A stretch of DNA of 64,000 bases. It comes from Candidatus Marinacidobacterales bacterium. GTDB lineage: Bacteria > Acidobacteriota > Vicinamibacteria > Marinacidobacterales > SMYC01. The stretch's first letter is position 1. Every line of letters starts with the position of its first letter. The stretch covers positions 5,376,001 to 5,440,000 of the forward strand of contig OZ250169.1 in NCBI GenBank assembly GCA_965237955.1, given 5' to 3'. The position numbers and the translations under genes were made by a program. The notes under the pieces were generated by a model. It did not search any database, was not told the origin of the DNA, and saw nothing but the letters and a program-made list of their open reading frames with translations. Below are positions 36,409-54,972 of the stretch, in pieces.

Positions 36409-36889
36409 ATGAGAGTTTTCTTCGCGGTTGTGAGCCTTTTCACAGCGGTTTTCGCGCACGGGGCGACGTTCGACCAGCGAGGACGACATCAGACACATCA
36501 TGCGGCAGGATTTCACGATGACGAGCTCCGATGGCGGGTTGGTGGCTATCGGCGAGGGAAAACCTCATCCGCGTTACTACGGTACGTTTCCCAGAAAGAT
36601 CGCCCGCTACGTTCTGGACTGCGGTGTGGTCAGCCTTCCGCATGCGATCCGCTCGATGACAAGCTTGCCCGCCACGGTGTTCGGGATCGCCGAGTGTGGT
36701 CAGCTCCGTCCGGGCGCGTGGGCGGACATCGTTGTGTTCGACCTCGAAGAGTTCCAAGACCGAGCCACTTACCAGGATCACCAACTTGCCGAGGGCGTTA
36801 CCCACGTGCTCGTCAATGGGAAGCTCAGCTGGGGGAAGCTCAGCGGGGCGGGTGTCCTCGCAGGACGAGTTTTACGCCCCGAAGAGTGA
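36409..36889 (+). pseudogene. N-acyl-D-amino-acid deacylase (D-aminoacylase), internally deleted
   Basis: Signal peptide MRVFFAVVSLFTAVFAHGATFD joined out of frame to the C-terminus SSDG...HPRYYGTFPR...ADIVVFD...VLVNG. Confidence 0.8.
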
Positions 36890-36949
36890 GCGTTAGTATT
36901 ATTGGTTCTCCTGTCGTTTCGGGGGATCTGATTTGTGTTGGAGGGCATG

Positions 36950-37261
36950 GCCTATGGACGCTGCCGCGATTGTGGAAAACGCCGGAAACTCCGGGCGAGA
37001 GAGGCGTTTAGGGAAAGGTTGTGAGCACGTACAAACGTGGAGCGGCGTTTTCCACAATCGCTTGGAAAACGCTTCGCGTTTCCCACGAGCGCCCACAGGC
37101 CCCTCCTGATATATATACAAGAAAGATTAATTCATATGGAATAAGGAAGGGGGGGCTCGATTAGTGGAGGCTATGGAAAACGCCCTTCCAGGCTTCGAAG
37201 AGAACTCAGTCGTGAGCAAGGTCTGAACGACCAGAACCGTGGGGGCGTTTCCCACAGCCTC
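36950..37261 (+). other. Structured non-coding leader of the ISL3 (two related stem-loop modules)
   Basis: Perfect 18-bp stem GCGATTGTGGAAAACGCC/GGCGTTTTCCACAATCGC, a TTCG hairpin and a closing stem; second module at 37167-37261. Confidence 0.55.
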
Positions 37262-37386
37262 GTCTCCCGCTGAGGGGCAGTGGCATTTGGTGAGGCCCGT
37301 GGGTTGAGAGGGTAAGCCATGTGTAGATGCGCATCGGCGAGAACGCTAGAATCTTTTTTCCCGAAAGAGAAAAGAGCGTTCCCGCG

Positions 37387-38607
37387 ATGCGCGTTACTAC
37401 GTTAGTCAACAAGCTCATCGGATTGCAAGGCCTGTGGGTCCGAGGTTTCCACTTCCAGGCGGACAAAGCCAGAGTGGTGGTGGATGTAGTACCACGGAGG
37501 AGGAAGCCTCTGTGCGGGATTTGCGGACGAAAGGTCCGCAAGAACAAAGATCGCTACAATCGCTACTGGCGGCACTTGGACCTGTTCGGAGTCCGGACCT
37601 ATCTTCGCTACTCGATCCGACGAGTGGTATGTCGGCGGTGTGGAGTGGTCAGAGAAAAGGTGCCTTGGGCCGACAAGGGAAGCCGCTTTACCAAAAGCTT
37701 CGAACAAGAGGTAGCGTGGCTGGCACAGAGGACGGACGTCAGCGCCGTAGCGAACTATTTCCGAGTGACGTGGCGTTCGGTGCGACGGATCATCCAGCGA
37801 GTGGTTGCCGAGCAGCGGGATGAGCGGCGCGAGCTCGATGGATTGCGGGTGATTGGGATGGACGAGATCAGCTACCGCAAACGCCACAAGTACTTAACAG
37901 TGGTAATAGACCATCTCAGCGGCCGGGTCGTCTGGGCGGGAAAGGAGCGCAAGGCCAAGACGCTGCTGCGGTTTTTCCGCAAGCTCGGACCACAAAGAGC
38001 CGCGGAGCTCGAAGCGGTCAGCATGGACATGTGGGAGCCGTACATAACTGTCGTCGGCAAAAAGGCTCCTCAGGCACGGGTGATCTTTGACCGCTTCCAC
38101 ATCGTCAAGCATCTGAACGAGGCCGTGGATAAGACCCGGCGCGAGCTGGTGCGCGAGCTCAAAGGGACTGCCCGGCGCAACCTCAAGAACACCAAGTTTC
38201 CCCTTCTCAAGGCCAAACACAACCGCAGCGCGAAAGACAAACGGGTGCTCCGCGAGCAGGTGCGAGCTAATCGTCGCCTCTACCGCGCCATGCTTCTGCG
38301 CGACGACTTCATGGACCTCTACACCTACAAAACCGAGACATGGGCCAAGAAGTTTCTCCGAGGATGGCTGCGGCGCGCTATGAGCTCGAGGATAGAGCCC
38401 GTCAAACGCGCGGCGAAGATGATCCGCAGCCACTTCGATGGCGTCATCGCGTGGGTCACGTGGAGACTCAGCAACGGCCGACTCGAAGGAATGAACAACA
38501 AAATCAGGCTGCTGAGCCACCGCAGCTTTGGACTCCACTCTGCCGAAGCTCTCATCAGTCTCGTCTACCTAAACTGTGGCGGTCTCACCCTCGAGAGGAT
38601 CCACTGA
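37387..38607 (+). CDS. ISL3 transposase
   Basis: Zn finger CGIC/CRRC, IGMDEISY, SMDMW, DRFH, EGMNNKIR. Confidence 0.95.
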   Translation: MRVTTLVNKLIGLQGLWVRGFHFQADKARVVVDVVPRRRKPLCGICGRKVRKNKDRYNRYWRHLDLFGVRTYLRYSIRRVVCRRCGVVREKVPWADKGSRFTKSFEQEVAWLAQRTDVSAVANYFRVTWRSVRRIIQRVVAEQRDERRELDGLRVIGMDEISYRKRHKYLTVVIDHLSGRVVWAGKERKAKTLLRFFRKLGPQRAAELEAVSMDMWEPYITVVGKKAPQARVIFDRFHIVKHLNEAVDKTRRELVRELKGTARRNLKNTKFPLLKAKHNRSAKDKRVLREQVRANRRLYRAMLLRDDFMDLYTYKTETWAKKFLRGWLRRAMSSRIEPVKRAAKMIRSHFDGVIAWVTWRLSNGRLEGMNNKIRLLSHRSFGLHSAEALISLVYLNCGGLTLERIH

Positions 38608-41174: not shown

Positions 41175-41882
41175 CTACCTACTCACTCTCCTGATGGTCA
41201 GCTCGTCCGCGTGGGCGCAATCCCCGGACCCGTTTACGAGCGGGAATCTGCGGCGGCGTTCGTAGATGGCGAGTACGCTGAGCGACGCGAACAACACGAG
41301 CCCAGGAGCGACGATCGGGCGCGGCACTGCCGGAGGAAGCGACGCTAACCGCGCCGCCGGGCGGTAGCTGTCCAGCGAGACGATGCCTTGGACGCCTTCC
41401 GGGTTGTGGCAGTGAACGCAGTGCGCGTCGAGGACCGCTTTCGCGGTTGGCCACTCCGATTCCGGCGCGCCGGCGTCGATCCAGTCGACGAGCGTCTTGT
41501 GCGCTTCCGGCGACTCCAGATATTCGCCCATCGTGCCGCCGGTAATCTTCTCCTCGAGTACGGGCAGCACTTCCGCGGCGCGTGCGGCGTCCGAATAGTT
41601 GTCGAGCGGCAGGAATTCGAACGACGCGTCGGAGTGGTGGCACGTCGTGCAGCGATCTTCGAACACGCTTTCGACTCGCGGCCAGTCGCGCTCCGGCGCG
41701 CCATCGTTCACCCACCGCAGAATCGTTTCTCTTTCCTCCGCGGTCTCGAGGAACTCTTCCATCTTGCCTCCGTCGATGACGGCGGCAAGACGAGGCGGAC
41801 GGCCGTAATCTGGTTTGGCGAGGAGTGCTAGAAGGAGGAAACCGGCCGCCGCGAGTGCGACAAGCCCGAGGAGCGGTTTCAT
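41175..41882 (-). CDS. Membrane-anchored diheme c-type cytochrome made of two tandem repeats
   Basis: CTTCH and CVHCH; N-terminal hydrophobic segment; C-terminal VPRP-TM-RRRR; ATGA overlap with the upstream oxidase. Confidence 0.75.
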   Translation of the reverse strand: MKPLLGLVALAAAGFLLLALLAKPDYGRPPRLAAVIDGGKMEEFLETAEERETILRWVNDGAPERDWPRVESVFEDRCTTCHHSDASFEFLPLDNYSDAARAAEVLPVLEEKITGGTMGEYLESPEAHKTLVDWIDAGAPESEWPTAKAVLDAHCVHCHNPEGVQGIVSLDSYRPAARLASLPPAVPRPIVAPGLVLFASLSVLAIYERRRRFPLVNGSGDCAHADELTIRRVSR

Positions 41883-42961
41883 CCGTTCTTCATCTGTCCC
41901 CAAAAATTGGTGTGGCCTTCCATGACGCGGTGCATCTCGGTCCGGCTCGGCTCGAGCGACCACTCGCCGCGCTCATGGGTGCTCCCGAGAGCGATGCCGT
42001 CACGGCGCGGGATCATGTACAGCCCGCCGCCGACCATCATGTAGTCGATCTCGGGCTGCGGGAGCAGAAACGTGAGCTGACCTTTGATAGGCGTTAGGGT
42101 CTCGTCACCGAAGAGATCCCGCGCGCCAAGGCCGCTGCAGTTCATGATGACGGACTCGTCGAGTGAGAGTACGTCGACGACGCTCGCGAACGATCGGAGA
42201 ACGACGTCACCGCCGGCGATCCGATAGTCCCGCAGCAAGGCTCTCAGATACGTGGGCGGCTCGATGACCATCGTCCAGCTTCGGCGGACATAAGGCCACG
42301 GAAACGGGTGCTCGCCTGCGGCTAGATCTTGGCCCTCGGGAAAGAGGTCGGCGATGAGACTGCGCGTCGTCGATTCCGGGGGCTGCTCCGATACGCTGTA
42401 GCGAGGTCGCCAGCGAACGCCGTACTCGAGACCGACGTAGTTCTGATAATAGCGGTTCGCGAAACGCGCCGCCTTCACGAACTGCTCGTCGTACGCTTCC
42501 GTCCGCTCGCCCGGGTCCACCGTCGAGCCCGGGCTCCACCACGCCGCGGACATGTTCGAGGTCGTATCGGGCGGGATGTCCTTAGAATAAATGGTCACGT
42601 CCTTGCCCAGCTTTTGGAGGAGTCGCCCGGTAGAGAGACCCATGACACCGCAACCTATTATCGCGAATCGTTCTTCTCCGGTCGTGAGCGCTTTCTCGAC
42701 TGCCAGATGCGACGAGCCCCACGAAAGCGACATGCCGCCGCCACCGTGACCGTAGTTGTGAACGACGGTTTTGTTGCCGAACGTCTCCACTTCGACCCTA
42801 AAGCCCGACGGGCGGAAGGGGCGTAGTCCTACCGTGGTGCGGATGACGCGCTCGCTAGAGACGTTGACTCGGGCGAGGCCCGGGCCCGCACTCCGGCAAC
42901 CTGCTCCGAGTGCCAAGAGGCCGGCGGCTTGCAGCCATTCACGTCGATCCATGGCGGTCAT
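41879..42961 (-). CDS. D-amino-acid oxidase family flavoprotein, circularly permuted, Tat lipoprotein
   Basis: DRREWL...LGAGC signal; GLRPFR and VVHNYGHGGGG.SLSWG precede the IGCGVMG Rossmann motif; NCSGLGAR, PIKGQ. Confidence 0.85.
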   Translation of the reverse strand: MTAMDRREWLQAAGLLALGAGCRSAGPGLARVNVSSERVIRTTVGLRPFRPSGFRVEVETFGNKTVVHNYGHGGGGMSLSWGSSHLAVEKALTTGEERFAIIGCGVMGLSTGRLLQKLGKDVTIYSKDIPPDTTSNMSAAWWSPGSTVDPGERTEAYDEQFVKAARFANRYYQNYVGLEYGVRWRPRYSVSEQPPESTTRSLIADLFPEGQDLAAGEHPFPWPYVRRSWTMVIEPPTYLRALLRDYRIAGGDVVLRSFASVVDVLSLDESVIMNCSGLGARDLFGDETLTPIKGQLTFLLPQPEIDYMMVGGGLYMIPRRDGIALGSTHERGEWSLEPSRTEMHRVMEGHTNFWGQMKNG

Positions 42962-43737
42962 TCTATCAACAAGCCGTTCAGCTCGTCGTAGCTCAAGACG
43001 ATTTCCGTCGCCCCGAGGGCGTAAGGCGCGACTTCGTAGGCGTTGTAGTAGAACGTGAGCGCGTCTTCACCGATGGCGAAGTTGTCGGTCAGTGCGAACA
43101 CACCGTTCTCGAAGAACGCGAAACCGGCGTCGGTCAAGCTCATGCCGTCTTCGATGCTGCGCACTTCTCGAAACAGCGCCTGGGCGAGCGGCAAGAGCTT
43201 TGCCTCGTAGTCATCGACCAGCACATCCGACAACGGAATGCTCTCTCCGGTCCGTGGGTCTAGGTTCGAGAAAGTCACCGTCGCCATCCCATGAGCGCAG
43301 CCGGTAAACGAATGCTCGGAAAGGCTCATGCTCAGAATCTCCGACGTGTTGTGGAGAACGAACGCCTTCCGCTCCAGAAACCACGCATGCTCGTAGCTGG
43401 GCTGGTCTTCTTTGAGGCGGCGATACTCGTCGATGAACGCTTGCATCAACGCTTCCACGCTCGGGTAGGATTCCTCGTCTCCGTAGTTGGCGGTGAGGGA
43501 GGAGAACACCGCCTCGGTCACCGCGGTCACGGCGTACCCTTCGGGTGCATCGACGAGAACGGGATAATCGAGGCGGACGTAAGTGCAACCGTCGGCGCCG
43601 GCGAGACAGTTGTCGAACGTCTGCTCTTTGGTGAGCATTTTGAACTCGAGTCGGTCCATCACTTGCGGTGGAGCTTTTCCTTTGTCGGAAGCTTCGCAGC
43701 TCACCAGCACGAGTGCCAGCGAGAACCATATCCTCAT
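42958..43737 (-). CDS. DUF3298/DUF4163 (RsiV/PdaC-like) lipoprotein
   Basis: Lipobox LVSC; F.G.AHG motif; FYYNAYEVAPYALG. Confidence 0.8.
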   Translation of the reverse strand: MRIWFSLALVLVSCEASDKGKAPPQVMDRLEFKMLTKEQTFDNCLAGADGCTYVRLDYPVLVDAPEGYAVTAVTEAVFSSLTANYGDEESYPSVEALMQAFIDEYRRLKEDQPSYEHAWFLERKAFVLHNTSEILSMSLSEHSFTGCAHGMATVTFSNLDPRTGESIPLSDVLVDDYEAKLLPLAQALFREVRSIEDGMSLTDAGFAFFENGVFALTDNFAIGEDALTFYYNAYEVAPYALGATEIVLSYDELNGLLIE

Positions 43738-44824: not shown

Positions 44825-44886
44825 GTAGTCCTTTCTCTGAGTTGAACGCCCCAGCTCGCCAGCAGGGGAAGCGATCCATACGCCAC

Positions 44887-45654
44887 CGCTTCGGCGAGCA
44901 CCACGCGCTGGCGGCAATCGGCGTAGATACAGAGGGATACAAGCATGTTCTGGGGCTTCGGGATGGAGCATCGGAGAACCAGATAGTGTGCAAGGCGCTG
45001 CTGGAGGACCTGGTCGAACGAGGCCTGAGCCCAGAGCGGTATCGGCTGTTCGTGATCGATGGCTCCAAGGCGCTACGGGTCGCCGTCGACGCTGTGTTCG
45101 GTACCCACAACAAGGTCCAGCGTTGCAGGAAGCACAAGGAGCGCAATGTGCTCGGTTATCTGCCGCAGGAGCTGAAGCCGCAAGTGCAAGCGAGCCTGCG
45201 TTCGGCCTGGCAGCTCCCAGCAAAGAAGGGCAAAGCGCGGTTGGAGCAACAGGCGAAGTGGCTCGAGGACGACTACCCCTCGGCGGCGGAGAGCATCCGG
45301 GAGGGGCTCGACGAGATGTTCACCATCAACGAGCTCGACCTCCCCGCATCTCTGAAACGCTGCCTTGGATCGACGAACATCATCGAGTCGTGCTTCAGCG
45401 GTGCGCGAGGTCGTACCCGTCGCGTCACCCGCTGGCGCAATGGCAAGATGGTTCTGAGATGGGCCGCTTCGGCTCTGCTCGCCACGGAGAAAAATTTCCG
45501 TCGTATCATTGGATACCAATCGCTACCGATCCTCGAAGCGAAGTTAGCGGAGGTCACTGAGAATCAAGCGCTCGACAAGCACGCCAAAGTCGGGTAAACC
45601 ATGTGTCAGGAGCCGCCACCACCTCGAACCTTCAACTATGGTGGGGGCACCTCC
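44887..45654 (+). mobile_element. 5'-truncated copy of IS256 type 1
   Basis: Near-identical to 25170-25936 (one C/Y codon difference seen); only the right IR is present. Confidence 0.9.
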
Positions 45655-46648
45655 CGTTCAACGCGACGCCTCGGATCATCGCTTCATCTTCGAACGTTCC
45701 GTCCGTGCGATTGACCCATAGCTGGTTCGGGTTGCCGTCATTGGCCACGTAGATGTCGGGCCACTCGTCGGCCGTGAAATCGGCCGCAACGACACCGAGC
45801 CCGCTTCCCCCTGCCTGGATTCCCGATTCTGACGTGACGTCGGTGAACGTTCCATCACCGTCGTTGTGATAGAGCGTGTCTAAGGACGGTGGAAATTCTT
45901 GTGGCCCGCAGTAATCGGGCACGTCGTCGAGGCCCTGACACGGATGATCCGGAGCGAACTCTATGTAGTGAGCGACAAACAGATCCAGAAACCCGTCGCG
46001 GTCGTAGTCCAGAAAACTAGCCGATACACTCCAGTGATTCCCGGCGAAGCCAACGTCTGCCGTCGACTCGCGGAACGTGCCATCACCGTTATTGAGATAG
46101 AACGTATCCAAGCCGTAGTTCGTGAAATAGACGTCAGCATCACCGTCGTTGTCAATGTCTCCGATCGCGATTCCCTGTCCGAAGCCGGGATCTCCCAATC
46201 CGCTTTCCCGAGTCACTTCGTGGAACGCTCCGGCGTCGCTCTGACGGAACAGCCGGTTATGGGCAGGCATGTCTTGCTCACCCGGCGGCGGTTGTCGTGT
46301 CTGAAGCAGGTCGAGGTCACCATCGAGGTCATAGTCGAAGAGCGCAACGCCGCCTCCGGTGATCTCGGGCAGAGAAAAGTTCCCGTCGGGCCAAGCCGCG
46401 GGGCTCGAGTACTCGATTCGCTCCGTGATTTCGATGAGAAACGACCGATTGATCGGATCTCCCTCGGCCGCCGTGGGCCGGTTTATCGACGAGGTCGCAG
46501 CAACTACGTGATCCTCTTCGGTTGGAGTCGTGGTGACGGCGACGGCAGGCTCGGGCTCCAAGTCCGCGGATTTTTCGCCACTCTCGCGGTTCGTGCACGC
46601 GGGCGAGACCGTAACTAGAAACAAAAAGCACAGCGCGACGAGAACCAT
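45655..46648 (-). pseudogene. CRTAC1/FG-GAP (VCBS) repeat protein, 3'-truncated by IS256
   Basis: Repeated DYDLDGDLD, DIDNDGDAD, DYDRDGFLD, NNGDGTF; the frame runs into the IS right end. Confidence 0.85.
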
Positions 46649-46788
46649 CAAGGTACGTTTCCAAAAGTGAACGCGCGTGTCAATACTTTTCCTTCGGTGC
46701 GGCGGTGGGCGTCGGTTAGCCTTACAATCCAAGCTTTTCCGCCAAGTCGCTCCCTCTTAGGAGCTTATGTAGGCACCCCAACACACGC

Positions 46789-46805
46789 TGTCAGCTTTCC
46801 TTACA
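46789..46805 (+). promoter_or_regulatory. Candidate enhancer site (TGT-N11-ACA) for a sigma54 activator
   Basis: TGTCAGCTTTCCTTACA about 100 bp upstream of the sigma54 promoter; a second TGT-N10-ACA at 46768. Confidence 0.6.
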
Positions 46806-46902
46806 GAGCGGATTCAAATCGCCAGCACGTGCCCGTGGAAATCGCCGCTAACGAACTCTAATTAAACAACTTCGTTTCGCATGCTATCGACGCACTTCTG
46901 TT

Positions 46903-46918
46903 TGGCATGTTGATTGCA
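46903..46918 (+). promoter_or_regulatory. sigma54 (-24/-12) promoter
   Basis: TGGCATGTTGATTGCA = GG-N10-GC, 45 nt before the ATG. Confidence 0.8.
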
Positions 46919-46962
46919 AAGCAGAATGTCGTGTTTCTTATCCAAGCGTCAGGAGAACCAAG

Positions 46963-47604
46963 ATGACCAGTCCGTGGAAGACAATCCTTATCGGTGGGTT
47001 CGCACTCGCGATTAGTTCAGCCGCTGCCGCCACTCCGTGGCTCGAAATCGGAGACGCCGGAAGCCTGCCTGGAACAGCGCAGATAACAATCGGCGGCGGT
47101 CCGCTCACCATCATTTCGGGGAACATCTTTTCGTCGTCGGACGAGGACATGTATTTGATCAATATCTCCAACCCCGCAGCGTTTTCAGCAACCACGGTGG
47201 GCACCGGAGGTACCGCGTTCGACACGCAGCTGTTCCTGTTCGACTCGACAGGATTGGGCGTGTACACGAACGATGATGCCGTAGGGCTTCGGTCGACGCT
47301 GCCAGCAGCGCACGCGCTCGGCCCGGCACTCCCCGGCCAATACTATCTTGCGATTTCGACCTTCGACAACGACCCCGTCAGCGGAGCGGGCCTCATTTTT
47401 CCCAACACGTTCCCGGGCGTCTTCGGTCCGACCGGCCCAGGTGGAGCCGCGCCAATCACGGGGTGGGCGGGGGCAGGTAGTACCGGAACCTACAATATCC
47501 ACCTAACGGGGGCAAACTTTGGCGTGCCGGTGCCCGGCACCGTTTTGCTCGTCGCCACGGGACTGCTGGGCGTCGGCACGCTGCGACGCCGGCGTCGCAG
47601 CTAA
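46963..47604 (+). CDS. PEP-CTERM-type exosortase substrate (PPC/DVUA0089-like domain)
   Basis: Signal peptide; FDTQLFLFD..G..NDD; C-terminal VPVPGT + TM + RRRRRS; AGGAG RBS. Confidence 0.85.
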   Translation: MTSPWKTILIGGFALAISSAAAATPWLEIGDAGSLPGTAQITIGGGPLTIISGNIFSSSDEDMYLINISNPAAFSATTVGTGGTAFDTQLFLFDSTGLGVYTNDDAVGLRSTLPAAHALGPALPGQYYLAISTFDNDPVSGAGLIFPNTFPGVFGPTGPGGAAPITGWAGAGSTGTYNIHLTGANFGVPVPGTVLLVATGLLGVGTLRRRRRS

Positions 47605-47617
47605 AGCTGACTTCAAC

Positions 47618-48806
47618 CTAGTCCCCTGGATCTTTAATTACTGTCCAAATTCGATTTGCCATGTGTATCGAGCGTTCGCTGGGCGAACCGAGCGATGGTT
47701 TCGAGGATTTGGTCGGCGGATTTCGTCCACTTGAACGGCTTTGGGTTCTCGTTGTGAGCATCGAGATAGTCTTGTATCGCAACGCGGAGCTGAGGCACGC
47801 TCGTGTGCGAGCCTCGTCGCAAGGCGTGTTCGGTGAGCAAGCCAAAGAAGCGCTCAGCGAAGTTGAGCCAAGAGGCGTGTGTCGGTGTGAAGTGAAAGTG
47901 GAAGCGAGGTCGCTTGGAAAGCCAGCGTTTGATCGCCGGTGTCTTGTGCGTGGCGAGATTGTCGAGCACGACGTGGATGTCCAACTCGCTGGGAACGGCT
48001 GCTTCGATCTCAGCGAGGAACTTCTTGAACTCTAGCGCTCGATGTCGCGCGTAGCACTTTCCGAAGACTTCACCTGTTGCGGCGTCGAGTGCGGCAAACA
48101 GGTCAGTCGTTCCATGCCGAATGTAGTCGTGGGTTTGTCGCTCGGGCTGGCCCAAGCTCATGGGCAGGACAGGTTGAGCACGCTCGAGCGCTTGAATCTG
48201 CGATTTCTCGTCGACACACAGGACGACCGCGTTATCCGGTGGGTTCATATACAGGCCAACAACGTCGCGTACTTTTTCGACCAGTTGTGGGTCTTGCGAG
48301 AGACGAAACGATTCCGAGCGGTGCGGTTGAAGCCCGAACGTTCGCCAAATACGTCCAATCGTCGAATGACTCAGCCCAAGATGCTTGGCCATCGAGCGCG
48401 TACTCCAATGGGTTCTCCCCTTTGGAGTCGTCTCCAGCGTCTTGGTCACGACTTCCTCGATCTGGTCATCGCCGATTTTGCGAGCCGCTCCCGGCCGAGG
48501 TTCGTCGTACAACCCTTCCATTCGTTGTTCTACAAAGCGTCTTCGCCACTTGCCCACCGTGCTCCTCATGGTGTGCATCTTCCTAGCAACTTCCATATTC
48601 GTCAGACCCGCCGCGCAATCCAGCACGATCTTCGCTCGGAAGGCTTGGTGCGGCGAACTACGGCTGCGTCGCGCCAGTCGCGTCAGCGCTTCGCTTTCTT
48701 GAGACGCCAGCTTCAATTCGCCTTTTCGCCGGCCCTTGTGTTTCATGCATTTAGCAGATCACAGAAGGGCCAGTGTTGTCTAGCTTTTTCTGTTCCATGG
48801 GACTAG
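47618..48806 (-). mobile_element. IS630-family insertion sequence
   Basis: CTAGTCCC...GGGACTAG ends (TA target). Confidence 0.92.
47634..48746 (-). CDS. IS630 transposase
   Basis: [46 protein letters not shown]. Confidence 0.95.
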
Positions 48807-48911
48807 ACTGAAACGCCATCGGGAGGGCGCTCCACGGCGCGCCCTCCCGTTCGCGCGTCTGGGTCGTCTTCACGAAGATTGCCACCCAATCGGCACACTC
48901 GAGTCGCAAGC

Positions 48912-49010
48912 TCAGTGTGTCATCGCGTAGATCGCGATGTTCACGCCGACCGGATAGGCTTTGAGCGAAAATCGATAGAAGTACTCGTCTTCCTCCGCCT
49001 CTCTTTCCCA
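48912..49010 (-). pseudogene. C-terminal fragment of a DUF4159-type protein
   Basis: WEREAEEDEYFYRFSLKAYPVGVNIAIYAMTH*, cut by the adjacent IS. Confidence 0.65.
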
Positions 49011-49013
49011 GCC

Positions 49014-50504
49014 GTGCTACTCGCACGATCATTGTGGAGTACGGAGAGCGAACGTTCGACACATCTGTGAATGCAGGGCTTCCATGAGCGAACGGCTGGT
49101 CATCTGACTTACTGCCTGCCATGCTTGGGGATGACGAGACCCCACCGAGTTCGCCGGACCTACGACCATCGGCTGCGTGATGCCATCGCCGCGACTGGTA
49201 ATGCGGATCTGTTCCGGGATGTTGCCATCCCGCGCTCGACGCGGCGCACCTGGGCGCGCGGCGATGTTCGTCCCGTAGTCGCTTCGGTCGATGTTGAGCT
49301 GGAGGTCTACGAGCTACTGGAGCAGGTCGATAAACTGCGCCAGCGCGCCAGCCGCCAGGCGGCAGTCATCGGATTGCTCATGCAGCTTTTGAAACTCCGC
49401 GGCGGCAAACTCGACGGCGATCGCGTTCCCGAAGGCGTAAGCAAATCTGCTGTTCTCCGTGCGATCGGGTCGGCGACTGGCCTCCTACCGTTGGGGACCG
49501 CGCTGACGATCGTCGGCATCTCGTCGGCGCGGTATCACTCGTGGAGGCGCAAGGAGGAGGGCTGCGGGCTCGACGATCAACCGAGCTGTCCGAAGTCCTT
49601 TCCCAGCCAGCTCACACGCGACGAAATCTCCACGATGCGGGATTTCGTCGAGTCCGACGCTTATCGCCACATCGCGGTTCGGAATCTGACGCTTTACGCG
49701 CAGCGCCTAGGCAAGCTCTTCGCGTCGACAAGCACCTGGTACAAGATGATCCGCGAGCGCGGCTGGAGGCGCCCCCGAAGGCGGGTGCATCCCGCAAAGC
49801 CCAAAGAAGGACTCCGAGCAAAGCGCCCAAACGAGTATTGGCAGATCGACGCGACCGTGATCCGGCTGACGACCGGAGTCCGCATCTACCTCCAAGCGGT
49901 CATCGACAATTTCAGCCGAAGGATTCTCGCTTGGCGGGTGAGCGACAAGCTGAGCTCGGCAACGACGCGCGAGCTGCTCATCGAGGCCTCGGGGGACCTC
50001 CCTCGCGCCGCAGCGAACGCCAACGTGCTCGTCGTCACTGACGGCGGTTCGGAAAACTTTGGCGAGGTAGACCAGCTTCTCGAGGATTCAAGTTCTCTGA
50101 GTCGTGTGCTCGCCCAAGTCGACATAGTTTGCTCGAACTCTTTGATCGAAGCGTTTTGGCGACAATTGAAGCACGCGTGGCTTTTCCTGAACACCCTCGA
50201 CAGTACGGTGGCCGTGCGGCGTCTCGTCGCCTTCTACGTCGATGATCACAATGAAAAGATCCCGCGCGCCGTTCTCGGCGGTCGTACACCAGACGAGGTG
50301 TACTTCGGCCGTGAGGAGAATCTGCTGGAGCGGCTCTCTGAGCACCGCAAGAGGGCGCAGCGGGTCAGGAGCGCCGCGAATCGAGCAGCGAGTTGCTATC
50401 GCTGCGAACCGTCACGCGCAGGCCCGGCTGCGCGGAACGTCGCCAGAACACGAGCTCGTCGAAAACCTGCTCGGATATTTGCATAATGTCTGTGTGAGCA
50501 GCAC
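49014..50504 (+). mobile_element. IS with rve integrase core (IS3/IS481-like)
   Basis: Imperfect IRs GTGCTACTCGCACGATCATT / revcomp GTGCTGCTCACACAGACATT; no TSD seen. Confidence 0.7.
49131..50486 (+). CDS. DDE integrase-core transposase
   Basis: PNEYWQIDAT, VIDNFSRRILAW, TDGGSEN, NSLIEAFWRQLK, TPDEVY. Confidence 0.88.
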   Translation: MTRPHRVRRTYDHRLRDAIAATGNADLFRDVAIPRSTRRTWARGDVRPVVASVDVELEVYELLEQVDKLRQRASRQAAVIGLLMQLLKLRGGKLDGDRVPEGVSKSAVLRAIGSATGLLPLGTALTIVGISSARYHSWRRKEEGCGLDDQPSCPKSFPSQLTRDEISTMRDFVESDAYRHIAVRNLTLYAQRLGKLFASTSTWYKMIRERGWRRPRRRVHPAKPKEGLRAKRPNEYWQIDATVIRLTTGVRIYLQAVIDNFSRRILAWRVSDKLSSATTRELLIEASGDLPRAAANANVLVVTDGGSENFGEVDQLLEDSSSLSRVLAQVDIVCSNSLIEAFWRQLKHAWLFLNTLDSTVAVRRLVAFYVDDHNEKIPRAVLGGRTPDEVYFGREENLLERLSEHRKRAQRVRSAANRAASCYRCEPSRAGPAARNVARTRARRKPARIFA

Positions 50505-50680
50505 TGGTGCAAGTTCTCCCTTTGAACGACGTTCACGGCGTTCCAGCAAACATCAAGGGCCTCGGGAATCGCCTCTCAGGCCATGGACACATCAAGTCGA
50601 GTGCGACGTACTTGGGAAACGCGAAAGGAAATTCCTATCGCGAGCCGGCATCAAGCCACCCCTATTGGGGTAGCTGTTGG

Positions 50681-52051
50681 CTATCCTAGTTTGGATGAAA
50701 CCAAGCGTTTTGCAAATTCTTTTGCCTTTTCAGGAATCTGTAGTATTACCGCCGATTCCTTTAACGGTTTGGTGGCATCCATTCCTATCCGCGTTGCTAT
50801 GCCTTCATCCGATGCCGAGGGGTCCAACAGGACTCCCATGGCCCCCTCGACCTTCACCAGGTCCTTATCGGCCTGAAAACGGGTGGAAATTGCCCACAGG
50901 ACCTCTGTTTCATTGAAAACATCGACGTCTTCGTCAACCACCACCACCAGTTTTAGGCAATGATCGACGCCCAGGGCGGTTAAGATGGCCTGTTTGGCCT
51001 GACCCGCAGCCGTCTTCTGCATGGATATATAGGCATGAAACAAACCGCATCCGGAAATGGGCACATGCACTTTCTTAAGCCCCGGAATCGTCCGGGAAAG
51101 GGATTGAAACAGGTCCGCTTCCCTCGGAATAGCCAGAAGGGAACAGTGCTCGGCGGACAAACCCGCAGAGATACTCTGATAAATCGGGTTCTCTCGGTGA
51201 TACAGGGTTTGCGCTTCAAAAACATGCTGGGTGCTTCTAAATGAAGAATAATTGGTGAATTCGCCAAACGGACCCTCAGGCTCTCGAATCCCCGCCAATA
51301 TTTCCCCCTCCAAAACGATCTCCGCATATGCCGGTATGTTAAGGGGCACACTTATTCCTTTTACCACCTCAAAGGGCTCGCCCAGCAGCGCGCCGACGAC
51401 TTCGTATTTGCCTACGGTACTGGGAATCACGCCGATGGAGGCCAAAGAAATTAAAGGATGAACCCCCAGCACACACGCAATGGGGAAGTTTTCACCCTTT
51501 TCCTCCGCCCTTCGTTGAAAATCCCATAACCGTTTGCGCGAGTGCAGGCTTATGCCAAAGCGGTTGCCGCCTTTAAACATCAACCGGTGATACCCCAGGC
51601 TGCTCAGTCCGGTGTCCGGATCGGCGGAAACGATAAGGCCGGCGGTAATGTAGGGGGCCGGATCCGCCTGAAAATGAGTAAGTATCGGTAAAACGGAGGT
51701 GTCAATCTGATCGCGCTCATAAATCCTATAATGGGTCGGCGACTCTTTTATCACGTTTTCCCGGTAATAATTACTTTTGCGGTTGGAATACGTGGCAATA
51801 AGATTTTGTTCATCAGTATCAAACGCAAGCGCCATTCGGGCTCTTGAGCCGAGCAAATTAGCGAGAACAGGAATGGCGGCACCTTTGATATTTTCAAAAA
51901 CGACAATCGGAGATTTACCCCGGTTTTCTAGTTCCGTTAGAATAGCAGTGGCCTCATAGGCAGGATCCACTTCTTCGGTGATATGCATGACTTGATCCGG
52001 GCTTTTGGTTTCCGCTTGATGGATATATGACCGCCAGTCCTGCTTGCTCAT
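50681..52051 (-). CDS. ubiD: UbiD-family prFMN-dependent decarboxylase
   Basis: GYHRL, EIVLEG, EGPFGEFTNY, VVVVDEDVD, VLWAISTR, LDPS, DAT; visibly AT-richer than the host genes. Confidence 0.9.
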   Translation of the reverse strand: MSKQDWRSYIHQAETKSPDQVMHITEEVDPAYEATAILTELENRGKSPIVVFENIKGAAIPVLANLLGSRARMALAFDTDEQNLIATYSNRKSNYYRENVIKESPTHYRIYERDQIDTSVLPILTHFQADPAPYITAGLIVSADPDTGLSSLGYHRLMFKGGNRFGISLHSRKRLWDFQRRAEEKGENFPIACVLGVHPLISLASIGVIPSTVGKYEVVGALLGEPFEVVKGISVPLNIPAYAEIVLEGEILAGIREPEGPFGEFTNYSSFRSTQHVFEAQTLYHRENPIYQSISAGLSAEHCSLLAIPREADLFQSLSRTIPGLKKVHVPISGCGLFHAYISMQKTAAGQAKQAILTALGVDHCLKLVVVVDEDVDVFNETEVLWAISTRFQADKDLVKVEGAMGVLLDPSASDEGIATRIGMDATKPLKESAVILQIPEKAKEFAKRLVSSKLG

Positions 52052-52636
52052 AACGGCTCCCTTTTCAACTGAAGTTGTTTGTCTTCGATATCCTGAACGC
52101 CGCCTTTCACTGCAATGGGCATAGGAATTTCAAACGGCCCTCCCAATGTAGAGCTGGGTGAGTGGACCGTCCAGGGAGCCTGATGTGGTGGTCCACCCGG
52201 CTGCTTCCGGTCTGATCCGGGGGCCGATCAGCGATCGCGAGCCGATCGCGCTTCGCCAGTTCAAGCGCTTCGCAGTATTCGGAATCCTCATCGAGCCAGC
52301 GGTAATGGCTGCTCCGTTCGTGTACCTCCACTGAATAGCCCACCCGAAGATGGGTGAACAGACTATTTCCGAAGGATCGTGTCTTTTGACTTCTGGAAAA
52401 AGGTTGAGATCGGCTAACTTGCCGCCCATATCGGCACTTGGGTTTCTGATGCGGATGGCTAGCCCCTTGAGTCCATGGCTGAATAAAGTATCCGCATATC
52501 ATACGTTAGTACCGAAGGTCAATCCATAAGTAGCTGGACAGCTGGAGGGCGCACGTCACGATCGTGTCAACGCCGGCCGAAAACTGCGCATTCATGGCGG
52601 ATGAAAATTGCACACCCGAGCCATGGGTGGCGAACC

Positions 52637-53464
52637 CTATGACGCCGTCGCCTCCGTGTATTTCCTATGAGATTTAGCCGGCGGGTGAGGTTCGTCCGAA
52701 CCCGCCGGATGGAGCGCTCGCCACAGTTCGGAGTGCTCTCTCATGCGGTAACTGTTTCCTCGGATGTTGACGAGGTGGCAGTGGTGCAGAATGCGGTCGA
52801 TGAGAGCGGCGGCCATGACTTCGTCGCCAAGGATCTCGCCCCATTCCTCGAAACTTTTGTTAGAGGTGAGCACGGTCGAAGCGCGCTCGTATCGCCTACT
52901 TATGAGCTGGAAAAAAAGCACCGCGCCGGTCTGGGTGACGGGTAGGTATCCGATTTCATCGACAACAAGCAGTGACGGATAACTGAGAACCGCGAGTCGA
53001 CGAGTGAGGCGGCCCGCGTCACGAGCCTCTTCGAGGGAGGTGATGAGCTCAGCCAGGGTGCCGTAATAGACGCGCCGTCCATTCTGGGCAGCGGCGATGG
53101 CAAGATGAGTTTTGCCCACACCAGTAGGTCCCAATAAGACGACGTTCTCCTTACGTTCAACGAACCCGAGCTCGTGAAGGTTCTCAATCTGCTCGCGTTT
53201 GATCGATGGCTGGAACGAAAAATCGAACTCATCGATTGTTTTGACCGCGGGGAGTCGTGAGGAGCGCATCGCCGCTTGGAGACGACGGTTGTTTCTCAAC
53301 GTGATCTGCGCTCCAAGAAGGTTCTCGATGGCCTCCGCCGTTGTGACCGCACCGCCATCGGCATCAGATAGTACGCGGTCGACAGCTTTGAGCGCGCCAG
53401 GCATCTTTAGGTCGGCCAGCATCGTACGGATCTGCTCACGTCGCGATATTGTGCTCGCCTTCAT
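52637..53464 (-). CDS. istB: IstB ATPase
   Basis: FDFSFQP, GPTGVGKTHLA, VVDEIGY, TSN, LIDRILHH, GNSYR. Confidence 0.92.
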   Translation of the reverse strand: MKASTISRREQIRTMLADLKMPGALKAVDRVLSDADGGAVTTAEAIENLLGAQITLRNNRRLQAAMRSSRLPAVKTIDEFDFSFQPSIKREQIENLHELGFVERKENVVLLGPTGVGKTHLAIAAAQNGRRVYYGTLAELITSLEEARDAGRLTRRLAVLSYPSLLVVDEIGYLPVTQTGAVLFFQLISRRYERASTVLTSNKSFEEWGEILGDEVMAAALIDRILHHCHLVNIRGNSYRMREHSELWRALHPAGSDEPHPPAKSHRKYTEATAS

Positions 53465-53605
53465 TGTCCACCTCCAACGAGCCGCGTGTAGACTTCGAGG
53501 GGACGATGCTCGACATCCATCGAAGGCAGTGTGGTTAAGCAGGCTTTTGGAGTTCTTCTCGCGGGTTGGTTTGGCAGTACAAGAGAGCGATATGGCCGCT
53601 CAACG

Positions 53606-54972
53606 GGATGTGTCCCGAGGTCCGTGGAAAAAGAACGGCGCCCTCCACTCCGTCATCAGAGTATCATATCAGGCGGCAACCTCCGTGTGTTCGAGAACCT
53701 CGCTCAGACGTTGGTAGCCGTCGATGCGTCGTAGTTGAATCTGGCCAGAGGCGATAAGCCCAAACAGCAAAGCGACCGCGGACTCCTCGCTGGAGAACGA
53801 CGCTTGGGTTTTCGTCCGGCGTCGAAACTCGCGGTTGAGATTCTCCAGAGCATTGGTCGTTCGAATCGATTTCCACATGGCACGAGGGAATTCGTAGAAG
53901 GTCAGCAGCTGATTACCGGCCTCCTCTAGGCTTCGGACGACGGCTGGTGCGAGAGGCGTCCACTTGGCGACGAGCTCGTCATAGGCTTTGCGAGCATCGA
54001 TCCCGTTCTTGGCGTAGACGATCCGGTTGTAGTCACGCCGGAGCTCACGGCGTGCGTGCGCCGGGCAATGTTCGAGCAAGTTGGCGCGCTTGTGCTCGGT
54101 ACATCGCTGCAACCGGCACCCCGGCCACTTCTCCAGCGCTTTCGTCAGCCCCTTGTGGCCGTCGCTGATCACTAGCTTGGGAGCCCGGAGTCCTCGAGCC
54201 TGGAGTCCCTCCAGCACGGAGCCCCAATGCGTCGAGGCTTCGCTCACCGCCAGACGCAATGACAACAGACGTTTCTGCCCGTCTGGCGCGACCCCGAGCG
54301 CGACCAGTACGGGTACGCTGATCACACGTTTCGCCATCCGCACTTTCAGGTGGAAGCCGTCCAGGTAAACGATCGCGTAGACCTCCTCGCTGAGAGCACG
54401 GTTCTGCCATTCCTCGAAGCGCTCCTTCAGCCGGCTAACCACGCGAGACACCGCGCTCTTCGATAGGTGCTCCTCACCGAGCAGTGGTTTCAGCGCTTTG
54501 CGGATCCGGCGGCTATTCGCGCCCGACAAGTACGTCCCCAAGATCGCCTCGTCGACCTCACGAGTCCGGCGCGCGTACCGGGGCAACAGCTCGCTCCTGA
54601 ACTCTGTCGTCTCTCCCGTTTCCTCGTCTCGCACGCGGGCTCGTGGCACCCGGAGCTCGCGAGTTCCCACCGACGTCGTCACGCGACGGGTTTCGGCTCC
54701 GTTGCGATATCCACGGCGGTCTTCCGCACGCTCGTAGCTACCACACCCCAGCGCTTGGTTGACTTCTTCCTCGAGCACGACCTCGATTGCCTCCAGTACC
54801 CGCTTACGCAGCCGAAGTTGGACGAACTCCCGGTACTCGCTTACAGACTCCTTCGATATGGTGGTAGGCTTCTTCATGGCGTAATCCTCCTCCTCGCCTT
54901 TCCAGGCGCGGTTTCGTTTTGTTTAACCGGAGGTTACGCCATTCTTATTTCCACGGGAAGCGGGACGGATCC
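53606..54972 (-). mobile_element. IS256-family element (type 2), copy A
   Basis: IRs GGATCCGTCCCG.../...CGGGACACATCC; 8-bp TSD GCTCAACG (53598-53605, 54973-54980). Confidence 0.95.
53669..54877 (-). CDS. IS256 transposase
   Basis: GYRNG, VPRAR, YLDG, ISDG, QRC..HK, RTTNALENLN. Confidence 0.95.
   Translation of the reverse strand: MKKPTTISKESVSEYREFVQLRLRKRVLEAIEVVLEEEVNQALGCGSYERAEDRRGYRNGAETRRVTTSVGTRELRVPRARVRDEETGETTEFRSELLPRYARRTREVDEAILGTYLSGANSRRIRKALKPLLGEEHLSKSAVSRVVSRLKERFEEWQNRALSEEVYAIVYLDGFHLKVRMAKRVISVPVLVALGVAPDGQKRLLSLRLAVSEASTHWGSVLEGLQARGLRAPKLVISDGHKGLTKALEKWPGCRLQRCTEHKRANLLEHCPAHARRELRRDYNRIVYAKNGIDARKAYDELVAKWTPLAPAVVRSLEEAGNQLLTFYEFPRAMWKSIRTTNALENLNREFRRRTKTQASFSSEESAVALLFGLIASGQIQLRRIDGYQRLSEVLEHTEVAA

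Follow-up and report, generated by a model that had tools for sequence, protein, structure and literature searches.

Gene organization of the locus

The window, the whole stretch of 64,000 nucleotides that was analyzed, contains three genes on the minus strand chained by two ATGA overlaps; the features described below lie on this strand unless noted. The first gene (42958-43737) encodes a lipoprotein of 259 residues, recognized by its open reading frame, by the Pfam domains DUF3298 (E=2e-16) and PdaC (formerly DUF4163; E=6e-7), and by an LVSC lipobox. It is followed by the gene for a circularly permuted FAD enzyme of the D-amino acid oxidase (DAAO) family (360 residues; 41879-42961), assigned from its reading frame, Pfam, and an AlphaFold model, and by the gene for a diheme cytochrome c (235 residues; 41175-41882) with two CxxCH motifs and a hydrophobic helix at both ends. 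All three reading frames and both overlaps of the original prediction were reproduced. One overlap connects the DUF3298 gene and the flavoenzyme gene (42958-42961). The other connects the flavoenzyme stop and the cytochrome start (41879-41882) and is kept in relatives, with an in-frame cytochrome start overlapping the enzyme stop by 4 bases in 12 of 14 loci. Because the aligned flavoenzyme homologs begin at MDRR, the true start is probably the second ATG at 42952; the upstream overlap may therefore be incidental, but the downstream one is conserved. A scan of the locus for promoters and terminators gave results at chance level. The only run recorded as RNA yielded two short contigs, showing neither expression nor co-transcription.

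The exported character claimed for all three proteins agrees with sequence motifs, read without a predictor: a Tat/lipoprotein motif in the flavoenzyme, the lipobox of the DUF3298 protein, and the hydrophobic helices of the cytochrome. The twin-arginine signal of the flavoenzyme (DRREWL, RR at residues 6 and 7) extends up to a predicted lipidated Cys22 (42896-42952). RR and Cys each occur in 100 of 105 aligned rows, and the residue at -3 to Cys22 is a noncanonical Gly. The linker between anchor and domain measures 9 to 14 residues in the cytochrome-linked enzyme clade, compared to 12 to 53 residues in 73 other enzymes. A cell-surface location, as first suggested, is unsupported; the anatomy indicates the inner membrane, on its periplasmic side.

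A circularly permuted flavoenzyme

The flavoenzyme matches the Pfam family DAO (E=2e-29), with the match split into two stretches. In PDB sequence searches, residues 97 to 349 correspond to residues ~2 to 262 of DAAO and D-aspartate oxidase (DASPO), and residues 36 to 90 correspond to the C-terminal residues ~272 to 328. This permutation, already named in the original prediction, is confirmed by fold alignment of the AlphaFold model (pLDDT 91), in which residues 95 to 356 superpose on residues 1 to 269 of DAAO with Z scores of 22 to 23. The canonical order with the Rossmann motif at the N terminus is absent; owing to the permutation, the FAD-binding GxGxxG motif (GCGVMG, residues 103 to 108; 42638-42655) is internal. 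The relocated segment (residues ~32 to 92; 42686-42868), which is C-terminal in canonical DAAO and matches Pfam positions 301 to 352, contains GLRPFR with Arg47 as well as YGHGGGG. The Gly of the FAD motif is invariant in 105 rows, Arg47 of the carboxylate-binding motif GxRPxR is present in all 105 rows, and the active-site Tyr315 is present in 93.

PF01593 (Amino_oxidase, FAO superfamily) is absent among the Pfam matches at E values up to 0.1, among which DAO is listed. The score with NCBIfam PRK00711 (DadA) is 21.9 bits, compared to a cut-off of 383. The ESM Atlas gives generic DAO clusters only. Other full-length DAO-family genes are present in the same genome.

The absence of the D-aspartate oxidase arginines from the flavoenzyme suggests that its substrates are neutral or bulky D-amino acids. 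The pair could instead be a cytochrome-linked dehydrogenase whose substrate is not a free D-amino acid; candidates are glycine, opines, N-alkyl or imino acids, and D-residues on short peptides. Such a specificity would fit the identity to characterized DAAO and DASPO enzymes of only ~23 to 26%, the linked clade's own set of active-site residues (Met137, Ser138, Trp141, Gly145, and Met309), the glycine, iminodiacetate, and sarcosine oxidases contained in the fold list, and the signature motifs GxRPxR and YGHGGxG, also found in some glycine oxidases (PMC9844085). It is nevertheless unlikely, with DAAO and DASPO clearly first both by sequence, where they make up all 17 PDB matches, and by fold (Z of 22 to 23 with an rmsd of 2.2 Å over ~250 residues, compared to ~18 for glycine oxidases) and a score of 50 bits with the ThiO model, whose cut-off is 251.

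A cytochrome built from Met-first heme units

The cytochrome contains two heme units, of which the first extends from Met41 to C78xxCH82 (41568-41795) and the second from Met118 to C155xxCH159 (41337-41564); the hydrophobic helices are located at residues 4 to 22 and 189 to 207. A Met lies 37 to 39 residues before CxxCH in 31 of 31 heme units, and no conserved Met follows it; the canonical order, with CxxCH near the domain start and the distal Met behind it, is not found. The canonical cytochrome c profile matches all 20 single-heme relatives in reversed halves. The Met-first unit resembles a class I-like cytochrome c that has undergone natural circular permutation, and by its sequence the tandem of such units makes the cytochrome permuted too, which is new here. 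Residues 69 to 142 match a canonical cytochrome c domain end to end, and Met118 of the diheme protein could serve heme 1 in the canonical order.

The Met-first unit also occurs singly in membrane proteins and as an insertion in three clusters of GMC flavoenzymes, which show no obvious signal peptide that would account for heme attachment there. It is without a curated model, and no solved relative was found in these searches: no Pfam or NCBIfam model reaches its cut-off on the cytochrome, and the PDB sequence search gives no cytochrome match below E=0.19. Fold searches with the cytochrome model (pLDDT 78, pTM 0.51) are dominated by the two terminal helices and return uninformative helical hairpins only, with no cytochrome matches. 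Longer, fused cytochrome forms were absent among 7998 candidates in a weak search that also missed the known GMC insertions.

Coupling of enzyme and cytochrome across genomes

A gene-neighborhood comparison, proposed as a check in the original prediction, shows that the permuted DAAO and the cytochrome co-occur and that every cytochrome copy with upstream DNA follows the enzyme. Among 41 related genomes, the enzyme family is present in 31 and the cytochrome in 8. The enzyme lies directly upstream in six of seven relatives with the cytochrome, the seventh cytochrome starting at a contig end. It does so likewise in 9 of 10 full-family loci from GTDB, including one Longimicrobiales genome (one locus retains only the 3' end of the enzyme, and the tenth lies at a contig end), and in 13 of 15 metagenome loci, several of which repeat genome loci and two of which have no upstream DNA. 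All eight locus-verified linked enzymes and the window's enzyme form one clade (SH-aLRT 99, quick tree), with 22 unlinked rows outside. Trp222 and Trp354 are specific to the clade. This tree comprises 34 rows, the window's enzyme and 33 hits, from 120 database enzymes; the frameshifted L042, L044, and L129 were left out, as were L093 and L108, which the motif filter missed.

None of 30 Longimicrobiales loci of the permuted enzyme family contains this cytochrome, and none of 20 other enzyme-family loci in the window's order has an adjacent cytochrome c. In Kozakia, a cytochrome c gene starts 5 bp after that of a distant permuted homolog; this cytochrome is of a different type, class I. A search of 401 genomes, aimed at Proteobacteria but with the phylum sampled not named, gave three weak matches, none of them with a CxxCH neighbor. 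Most of the linked loci belong to closely related members of one family, and part of the coupling is explained by common descent.

The flavoenzyme could also be an ordinary periplasmic oxidase producing H2O2, with a co-transcribed cytochrome that serves something else and a coupling that is inherited synteny. All of its closest characterized relatives are oxidases, a cytochrome neighbor is missing in most of the family, and one cytochrome-adjacent enzyme of another family showed both activities (PMC12224317). Both proteins are acidic, the enzyme having a median net charge of -9 and 14 of 16 cytochrome rows a core charge of -2 to -16, and their overall charges do not complement each other. This explanation appears rather improbable in view of the coupling itself: every cytochrome copy found with upstream DNA has the enzyme there, the 4-base overlap has survived a divergence of the cytochromes to 50 to 65% identity, and the pair is kept amid different flanking genes in the Longimicrobiales locus L044, although the cytochrome occurs in only 1 of 251 genomes of this order.

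Neighboring genes

The DUF3298 protein reaches 19.8 bits with the RsiV anti-sigma model NF052658, compared to a cut-off of 250. The lipoprotein had been proposed as a part of the module, and this holds insofar as its gene stands before the pair in 8 of the 10 loci whose upstream gene is complete. In L044 a YtcJ-type amidohydrolase takes its place, in L045 a gamma-glutamyltransferase, and all nine family genomes that have DUF3298 and lack the cytochrome carry it at a distance from the enzyme; the lipoprotein is a frequent but replaceable neighbor. The amidohydrolase of L044 was considered as a D-aminoacylase and rejected, since its best PDB matches are not D-aminoacylases.

The D-aminoacylase that had been noted nearby as secreted is only a C-terminal piece of 133 residues (36470-36880, plus strand), located in a convergent block behind cystathionine beta-synthase and phytase-like genes. 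The genome holds eight other matches, and the remnant adds little. Peptidoglycan as the source of D-amino acids, also suggested originally, is unsupported. A three-part envelope module, in which the DUF3298 lipoprotein would bind fragments of peptidoglycan, or a muralytic enzyme, and supply the pair with D-amino acids, with the D-aminoacylase as a further member, could draw on the frequent upstream position and on long D-aminoacylase homologs 3 to 5 kb downstream in L039 and L043. The replacements in L044 and L045, the distant DUF3298 genes, and the opposite-strand position of the remnant make it highly improbable.

Proposed function

The flavoenzyme and the cytochrome are interpreted, with slightly better than even confidence, as a putative periplasmic D-amino-acid:cytochrome c dehydrogenase. 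Since the enzyme gene overlaps the gene of a rare diheme cytochrome, electrons likely go to respiration and not to hydrogen peroxide. Electron transfer from flavoenzyme to cytochrome is partly supported, gaining real weight because the coupling is conserved across genera and in a second phylum, because the linked enzymes form one clade, because GMC flavoenzymes carry the same Met-first heme unit as an insertion, and because experimental precedent exists in another flavoenzyme family (PMC12224317).

The permuted enzyme, predicted to be Tat exported and lipid anchored, would oxidize a D-amino acid by hydride transfer to give an imino acid, which would hydrolyze to a 2-oxo acid and ammonia. FADH2 would then donate one electron to each of two His/Met hemes of the predicted membrane-anchored cytochrome, and these may feed the respiratory chain, for example through the genome's heme-copper oxidase. 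The permutation would free the N terminus of the flavoenzyme for the anchor, with a short tether in the linked clade. The DUF3298 lipoprotein would be co-transcribed and not required.

A wider reading, to which we give a little less than even credence, sees here the first dehydrogenase branch of the DAAO family, naturally permuted, membrane tethered, and wired to an undescribed permuted class of cytochrome c. The Met-first unit would be a mobile electron-acceptor module for flavoenzymes (in tandem here, inserted in GMC enzymes, and fused to membrane domains elsewhere), and marine Acidobacteriota would respire D-amino acids in the periplasm. Listings from the open-licence literature contain no account of bacterial DAAO permutation, of a DAAO coupled to a cytochrome, of Met-first cytochromes, or of GMC enzymes into which a heme c unit has been inserted. 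DAAO is the textbook flavin oxidase. If the proposal is true, a natural cytochrome-linked DAAO with unlinked close relatives would provide a second fold in which to test how flavoenzymes select O2 or another acceptor. It would also reveal a periplasmic route by which marine bacteria respire D-amino acids, and biosensors and biocatalysis would gain a DAAO that makes no peroxide.

Comparison with known systems

The window's enzyme shares the fold, the GxGxxG motif, the Arg-Pro motif, and the active-site Tyr with the reference structures of DAAO (pig and human, 1an9 and 2du8; Rhodotorula, 1c0i) and human DASPO (6rkf). It differs in carrying the last ~60 residues first, in its export and lipid-anchor signal, in a short loop where the mammalian DAAO has a lid, and in missing the extra DASPO arginines. 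Canonical DAAO and DASPO use O2, whereas a cytochrome is proposed as the acceptor here. The window's cytochrome has CxxCH, the following LxLxxY, the conserved Met, and the W-I-x-x-G-A helix in common with class I-like cytochromes c (PSCyt1/Cytochrome_CBB3) and c4, but its repeating unit places the Met and this helix before CxxCH. DadA uses FAD to oxidize D-amino acids for respiration, facing the cytoplasm and coupled to quinone. The proposed pair would share this respiratory link, and the window's enzyme scores only 22 bits against 383 with the DadA model.

The statement that no described system has this layout overlooks dehydrogenases composed of a Tat-exported flavoenzyme and an adjacent cytochrome (PMC12224317). 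NicA2/CycN, Pnao/CycN, and the pairs of Akram et al. 2025 (PMC12224317) resemble the present pair in a Tat-exported FAD enzyme that oxidizes a C-N bond and in a cytochrome c gene next to it in the operon; they too are scattered among cytochrome-less relatives, and one of their clades also has membrane-bound diheme partners of ~20 kDa. All nine newly tested Tat-plus-adjacent-cytochrome amine oxidoreductases of clades 2 and 3 reduced their cytochrome at 1e4 to 1e6 /M/s, and three whose diheme partners are membrane bound reacted slowly with O2, the diheme pairs reacting only modestly in solution (PMC12224317). Most Tat-only enzymes of that study were oxidases, and O2 reactivity could not be read from sequence (PMC12224317). 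The main text of that study contains no mention of "D-amino acid" (PMC12224317). The known enzymes are of the monoamine oxidase type (FAO) with class I or c4 cytochromes, whereas the window combines a permuted, predicted lipoprotein of the DAAO family (PF01266), outside the FAO superfamily, with a Met-first tandem bearing a helix at both ends. With the Tat RR motif (100 of 105 rows) and the adjacent cytochrome gene in common, the logic of the putative pair is, by analogy, that of the proven NicA2/CycN-type dehydrogenases in a different enzyme family.

Gene Trio and Flavoenzyme

As originally noted, the window contains three minus-strand open reading frames chained by ATGA at both junctions: the DUF3298/PdaC lipoprotein P0003 (42958-43737; DUF3298 E=2e-16, PdaC E=6e-7), the DAO-family flavoenzyme P0001 (41879-42961; DAO E=2e-29) and the cytochrome P0002 (41175-41882), which carries two CxxCH motifs and reaches the cut-off of no family model. 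Each gene has one copy in the genome, a single 8.1-Mb contig (tblastn). The N terminus of P0001 shows RR and a conserved Cys22, and its true start is likely 42952, since homologs begin at MDRR. The C-terminal tail of P0002 (41175-41260) is longer than those of its homologs and unlike them, and its stop lies 4 bases from that of a convergent phytase-like gene.

P0001 is circularly permuted relative to D-amino-acid oxidase (DAAO) and D-aspartate oxidase (DASPO). All 17 PDB sequence matches are one of these two enzymes, and they align as two swapped pieces, with residues 97-349 of P0001 matching target residues ~2-262 and residues 36-90 matching ~272-328. In the AlphaFold model (pLDDT 91), residues 95-356 align with DAAO 1-269 at a Z score of 22-23, with glycine oxidases lower at ~18. 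The relocated piece contains GLRPFR and YGHGGGG; motifs of this type are described as bacterial DAAO signatures common also to some glycine oxidases (PMC9844085). Arg47 is kept in 105 of 105 aligned rows and Tyr315 in 93, the rows being those left from 120 listed matches plus the query after exclusion of fragments and near-duplicates. In the PDB sequence alignment, the positions of the extra arginines of DASPO, which serve its acidic substrates, fall on Met309/Val310 and His329 of P0001, which argues against such substrates. The signatures shared with glycine oxidases would suit a substrate other than a free D-amino acid, a reading that the PDB matches and the Z scores make unlikely.

The permuted enzyme family is large (5935 matches among 7998 candidates) and occurs in 31 of 41 related genomes and 34 of 121 from Longimicrobiales. 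One locus, L121 (G006:C133:9396-12833), holds three paralogs in tandem, none with an adjacent cytochrome.

Conservation of the Enzyme-Cytochrome Pair

The genes of P0001 and P0002 form a real, conserved two-gene module. The P0002-type cytochrome is rare, with 40 database matches. Of 41 related genomes, 8 carry it, and each of these belongs to its own family. A search of the class (401 genomes) detected the complete protein in that family only; among 401 of the phylum, it occurs in its own genome only, with weaker single-unit matches in 18 others, and 1 of 251 Longimicrobiales genomes has this cytochrome type. The proposed neighborhood search bore out the pairing: the permuted enzyme lies directly upstream in 6 of 7 relatives with the cytochrome, the seventh locus starting at a contig end. 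A GTDB scan gave 15 loci, 5 of them weak matches to other cytochromes; enzyme sequence precedes the cytochrome in 9 of the 10 P0002-family loci, 7 of which are relatives already counted. The others are L044 (Longimicrobiales), L047 (Vicinamibacteria), where just the enzyme 3' end precedes a 5'-truncated cytochrome, and L048, on a possibly misbinned contig filed as Acidimicrobiaceae, with an enzyme 84% identical to P0001. In metagenomes, 15 of 17 loci belong to the P0002 family, several duplicating genome loci, with the enzyme upstream in 13 and no upstream DNA in 2.

An in-frame cytochrome start overlaps the enzyme stop by 4 bases at 12 of 14 loci, the exceptions being L048 (ATGA but frameshifted) and L045 (an 8-base gap). 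A quick tree (64 rows) places P0001 and all 8 locus-verified enzymes with the cytochrome gene directly downstream in one clade of 16 (SH-aLRT, 99), with 22 unlinked rows outside. This clade has a short anchor linker of 9-14 aa and specific residues including Met107, Trp222, and Trp354 (18/18 clade rows versus 0/87 others). For the more distant cytochromes P0166 and P0170, the length of the longest contig is identical to that recorded for the second-clade enzymes P0069 and P0075 (2/10 versus 0.08 expected), an indirect link that is no proof of adjacency. Single frameshifts, due to assembly error or decay, affect one trio gene at several loci: the enzyme in L042 and L044, the cytochrome in L048, and the DUF3298 gene in L040 and L046.

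DUF3298 Gene and D-Aminoacylase Remnant

The DUF3298 gene, originally counted as a module member, holds this place in part. Homologs occur in 14 of 18 family genomes. Of the 10 loci where the gene upstream of the pair is complete, 8 have DUF3298 in that position; it is replaced by a YtcJ-type amidohydrolase in L044 and by a gamma-glutamyltransferase in L045. In all 9 family genomes that carry DUF3298 and lack the cytochrome, its gene is at a different place from that of the enzyme. An obligate three-gene peptidoglycan module, to which the upstream position lends some color and the replacements run counter, is very improbable.

The D-aminoacylase-like remnant (36470-36880, plus strand; 133 aa, C-terminal piece), whose L039 homolog matches 1m7j (E=8e-67), had been thought to fit the D-amino-acid theme. 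An ISL3 transposase, a cystathionine beta-synthase and a phytase-like gene converging on the trio lie between, and the genome contains 8 other D-aminoacylase matches. Its proximity reflects family synteny more than the module. The transposase (37327-38607; with the remnant, 36470-38607) has a near-identical counterpart in L039. Insertion elements are also dense at 44842-54877 (two Mutator, IS630-type, rve integrase, and IstB). They surround a UbiD gene of lower GC content (50681-52051) as well as a PEP-CTERM gene (46963-47604).

Met-First Cytochrome Unit

The most distinctive part of the module is the heme-c unit of P0002, which is repeated within the protein, with an invariant Met (Met41 and Met118) ahead of each CxxCH motif. 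When 1.84 billion representatives were searched with a profile, there were 349 matches, and among the best 150 of these the unit recurs in other protein settings. A hand-picked set of 26 proteins contains 31 units; all 31 have a Met 37-39 residues ahead of CxxCH, and there is no conserved Met after it. By analogy with class I cytochrome c chemistry, this Met would be the sixth heme ligand. A canonical-order profile, built from 27 domains among the same matches (26 with Met after CxxCH), matches P0002 with its second half at 32-65, whole at 69-142 and with its first half at 146-175. This set was picked for likeness to P0002; the reversed halves seen in 20 of 20 single-heme relatives are independent of that choice. 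By its sequence, the cytochrome itself thus appears permuted.

P0002 has one hydrophobic helix at 4-22 and another at 189-207, with four arginines after the latter; by the positive-inside rule, this arrangement would place the hemes in the periplasm at the inner membrane. Motif scans of the genome gave a single match for heme-copper oxidase subunit I and a single match for a cytochrome maturation gene of the CcmF type.

The unit also occurs singly, both in small anchored proteins and in membrane proteins that bear an HxH motif downstream of it. Three clusters of GMC flavoenzymes (P0213, P0218, and P0224/P0315) carry it as an insertion spanning roughly residues 285-360. These insertions tie it to flavin chemistry. 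The GMC proteins, a possible undescribed flavocytochrome, have no obvious signal peptide, at odds with the inserted heme-c unit. The single-unit membrane proteins form a large family (L072:1228-1971; L074-L084; P0188, P0189, and P0196) that no Pfam or NCBIfam model matches over cut-off; many have further helices besides the HxH motif, possibly with a second heme.

Predicted Role and Comparison with Known Systems

Cytochrome coupling is a trait of some branches, not of the permuted family, as seen from other loci. On the Kozakia baliensis plasmid NZ_CP014677.1 (L108:5884-7544), a permuted enzyme 33% identical to P0001 has a class I monoheme cytochrome c 5 bp downstream, amid serine hydrolases, a second DAO-family enzyme, peptidases, and a TonB receptor; this cultured host would make the dehydrogenase idea testable. 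At 5 of 30 Longimicrobiales loci, in close kin (L163-L167; genomes G838, G829, G853, G856, and G802), a cytochrome c-beta-barrel fusion gene and a pentaheme gene follow 30-330 bp downstream. The Niveispirillum and Rhizobium loci have no neighboring cytochrome, and an adjacent one is found at 0 of 20 other permuted-enzyme loci of the own order.

A plain oxidase, in keeping with these cytochrome-free loci and at variance with the conserved pairing, is rather doubtful for P0001. A periplasmic D-amino-acid:cytochrome c dehydrogenase is the most likely role of the pair, a putative assignment favored somewhat above even. Both proteins are acidic overall.

In the amine-oxidase superfamily, Tat export plus an adjacent cytochrome c gene is reported to predict dehydrogenase activity (Akram et al. 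2025, PMC12224317). According to that study, the enzyme reduced its own cytochrome fast in 9 of 9 new pairs from clades 2-3, one enzyme being also O2-reactive; 3 enzymes of clade 1, whose diheme partners are membrane-bound, reacted slowly with O2 and modestly with the cytochrome, and most Tat-only enzymes were oxidases. The P0001-P0002 pair resembles the class described there by gene logic but stands outside it, with an enzyme of the DAO family and a cytochrome of another build.
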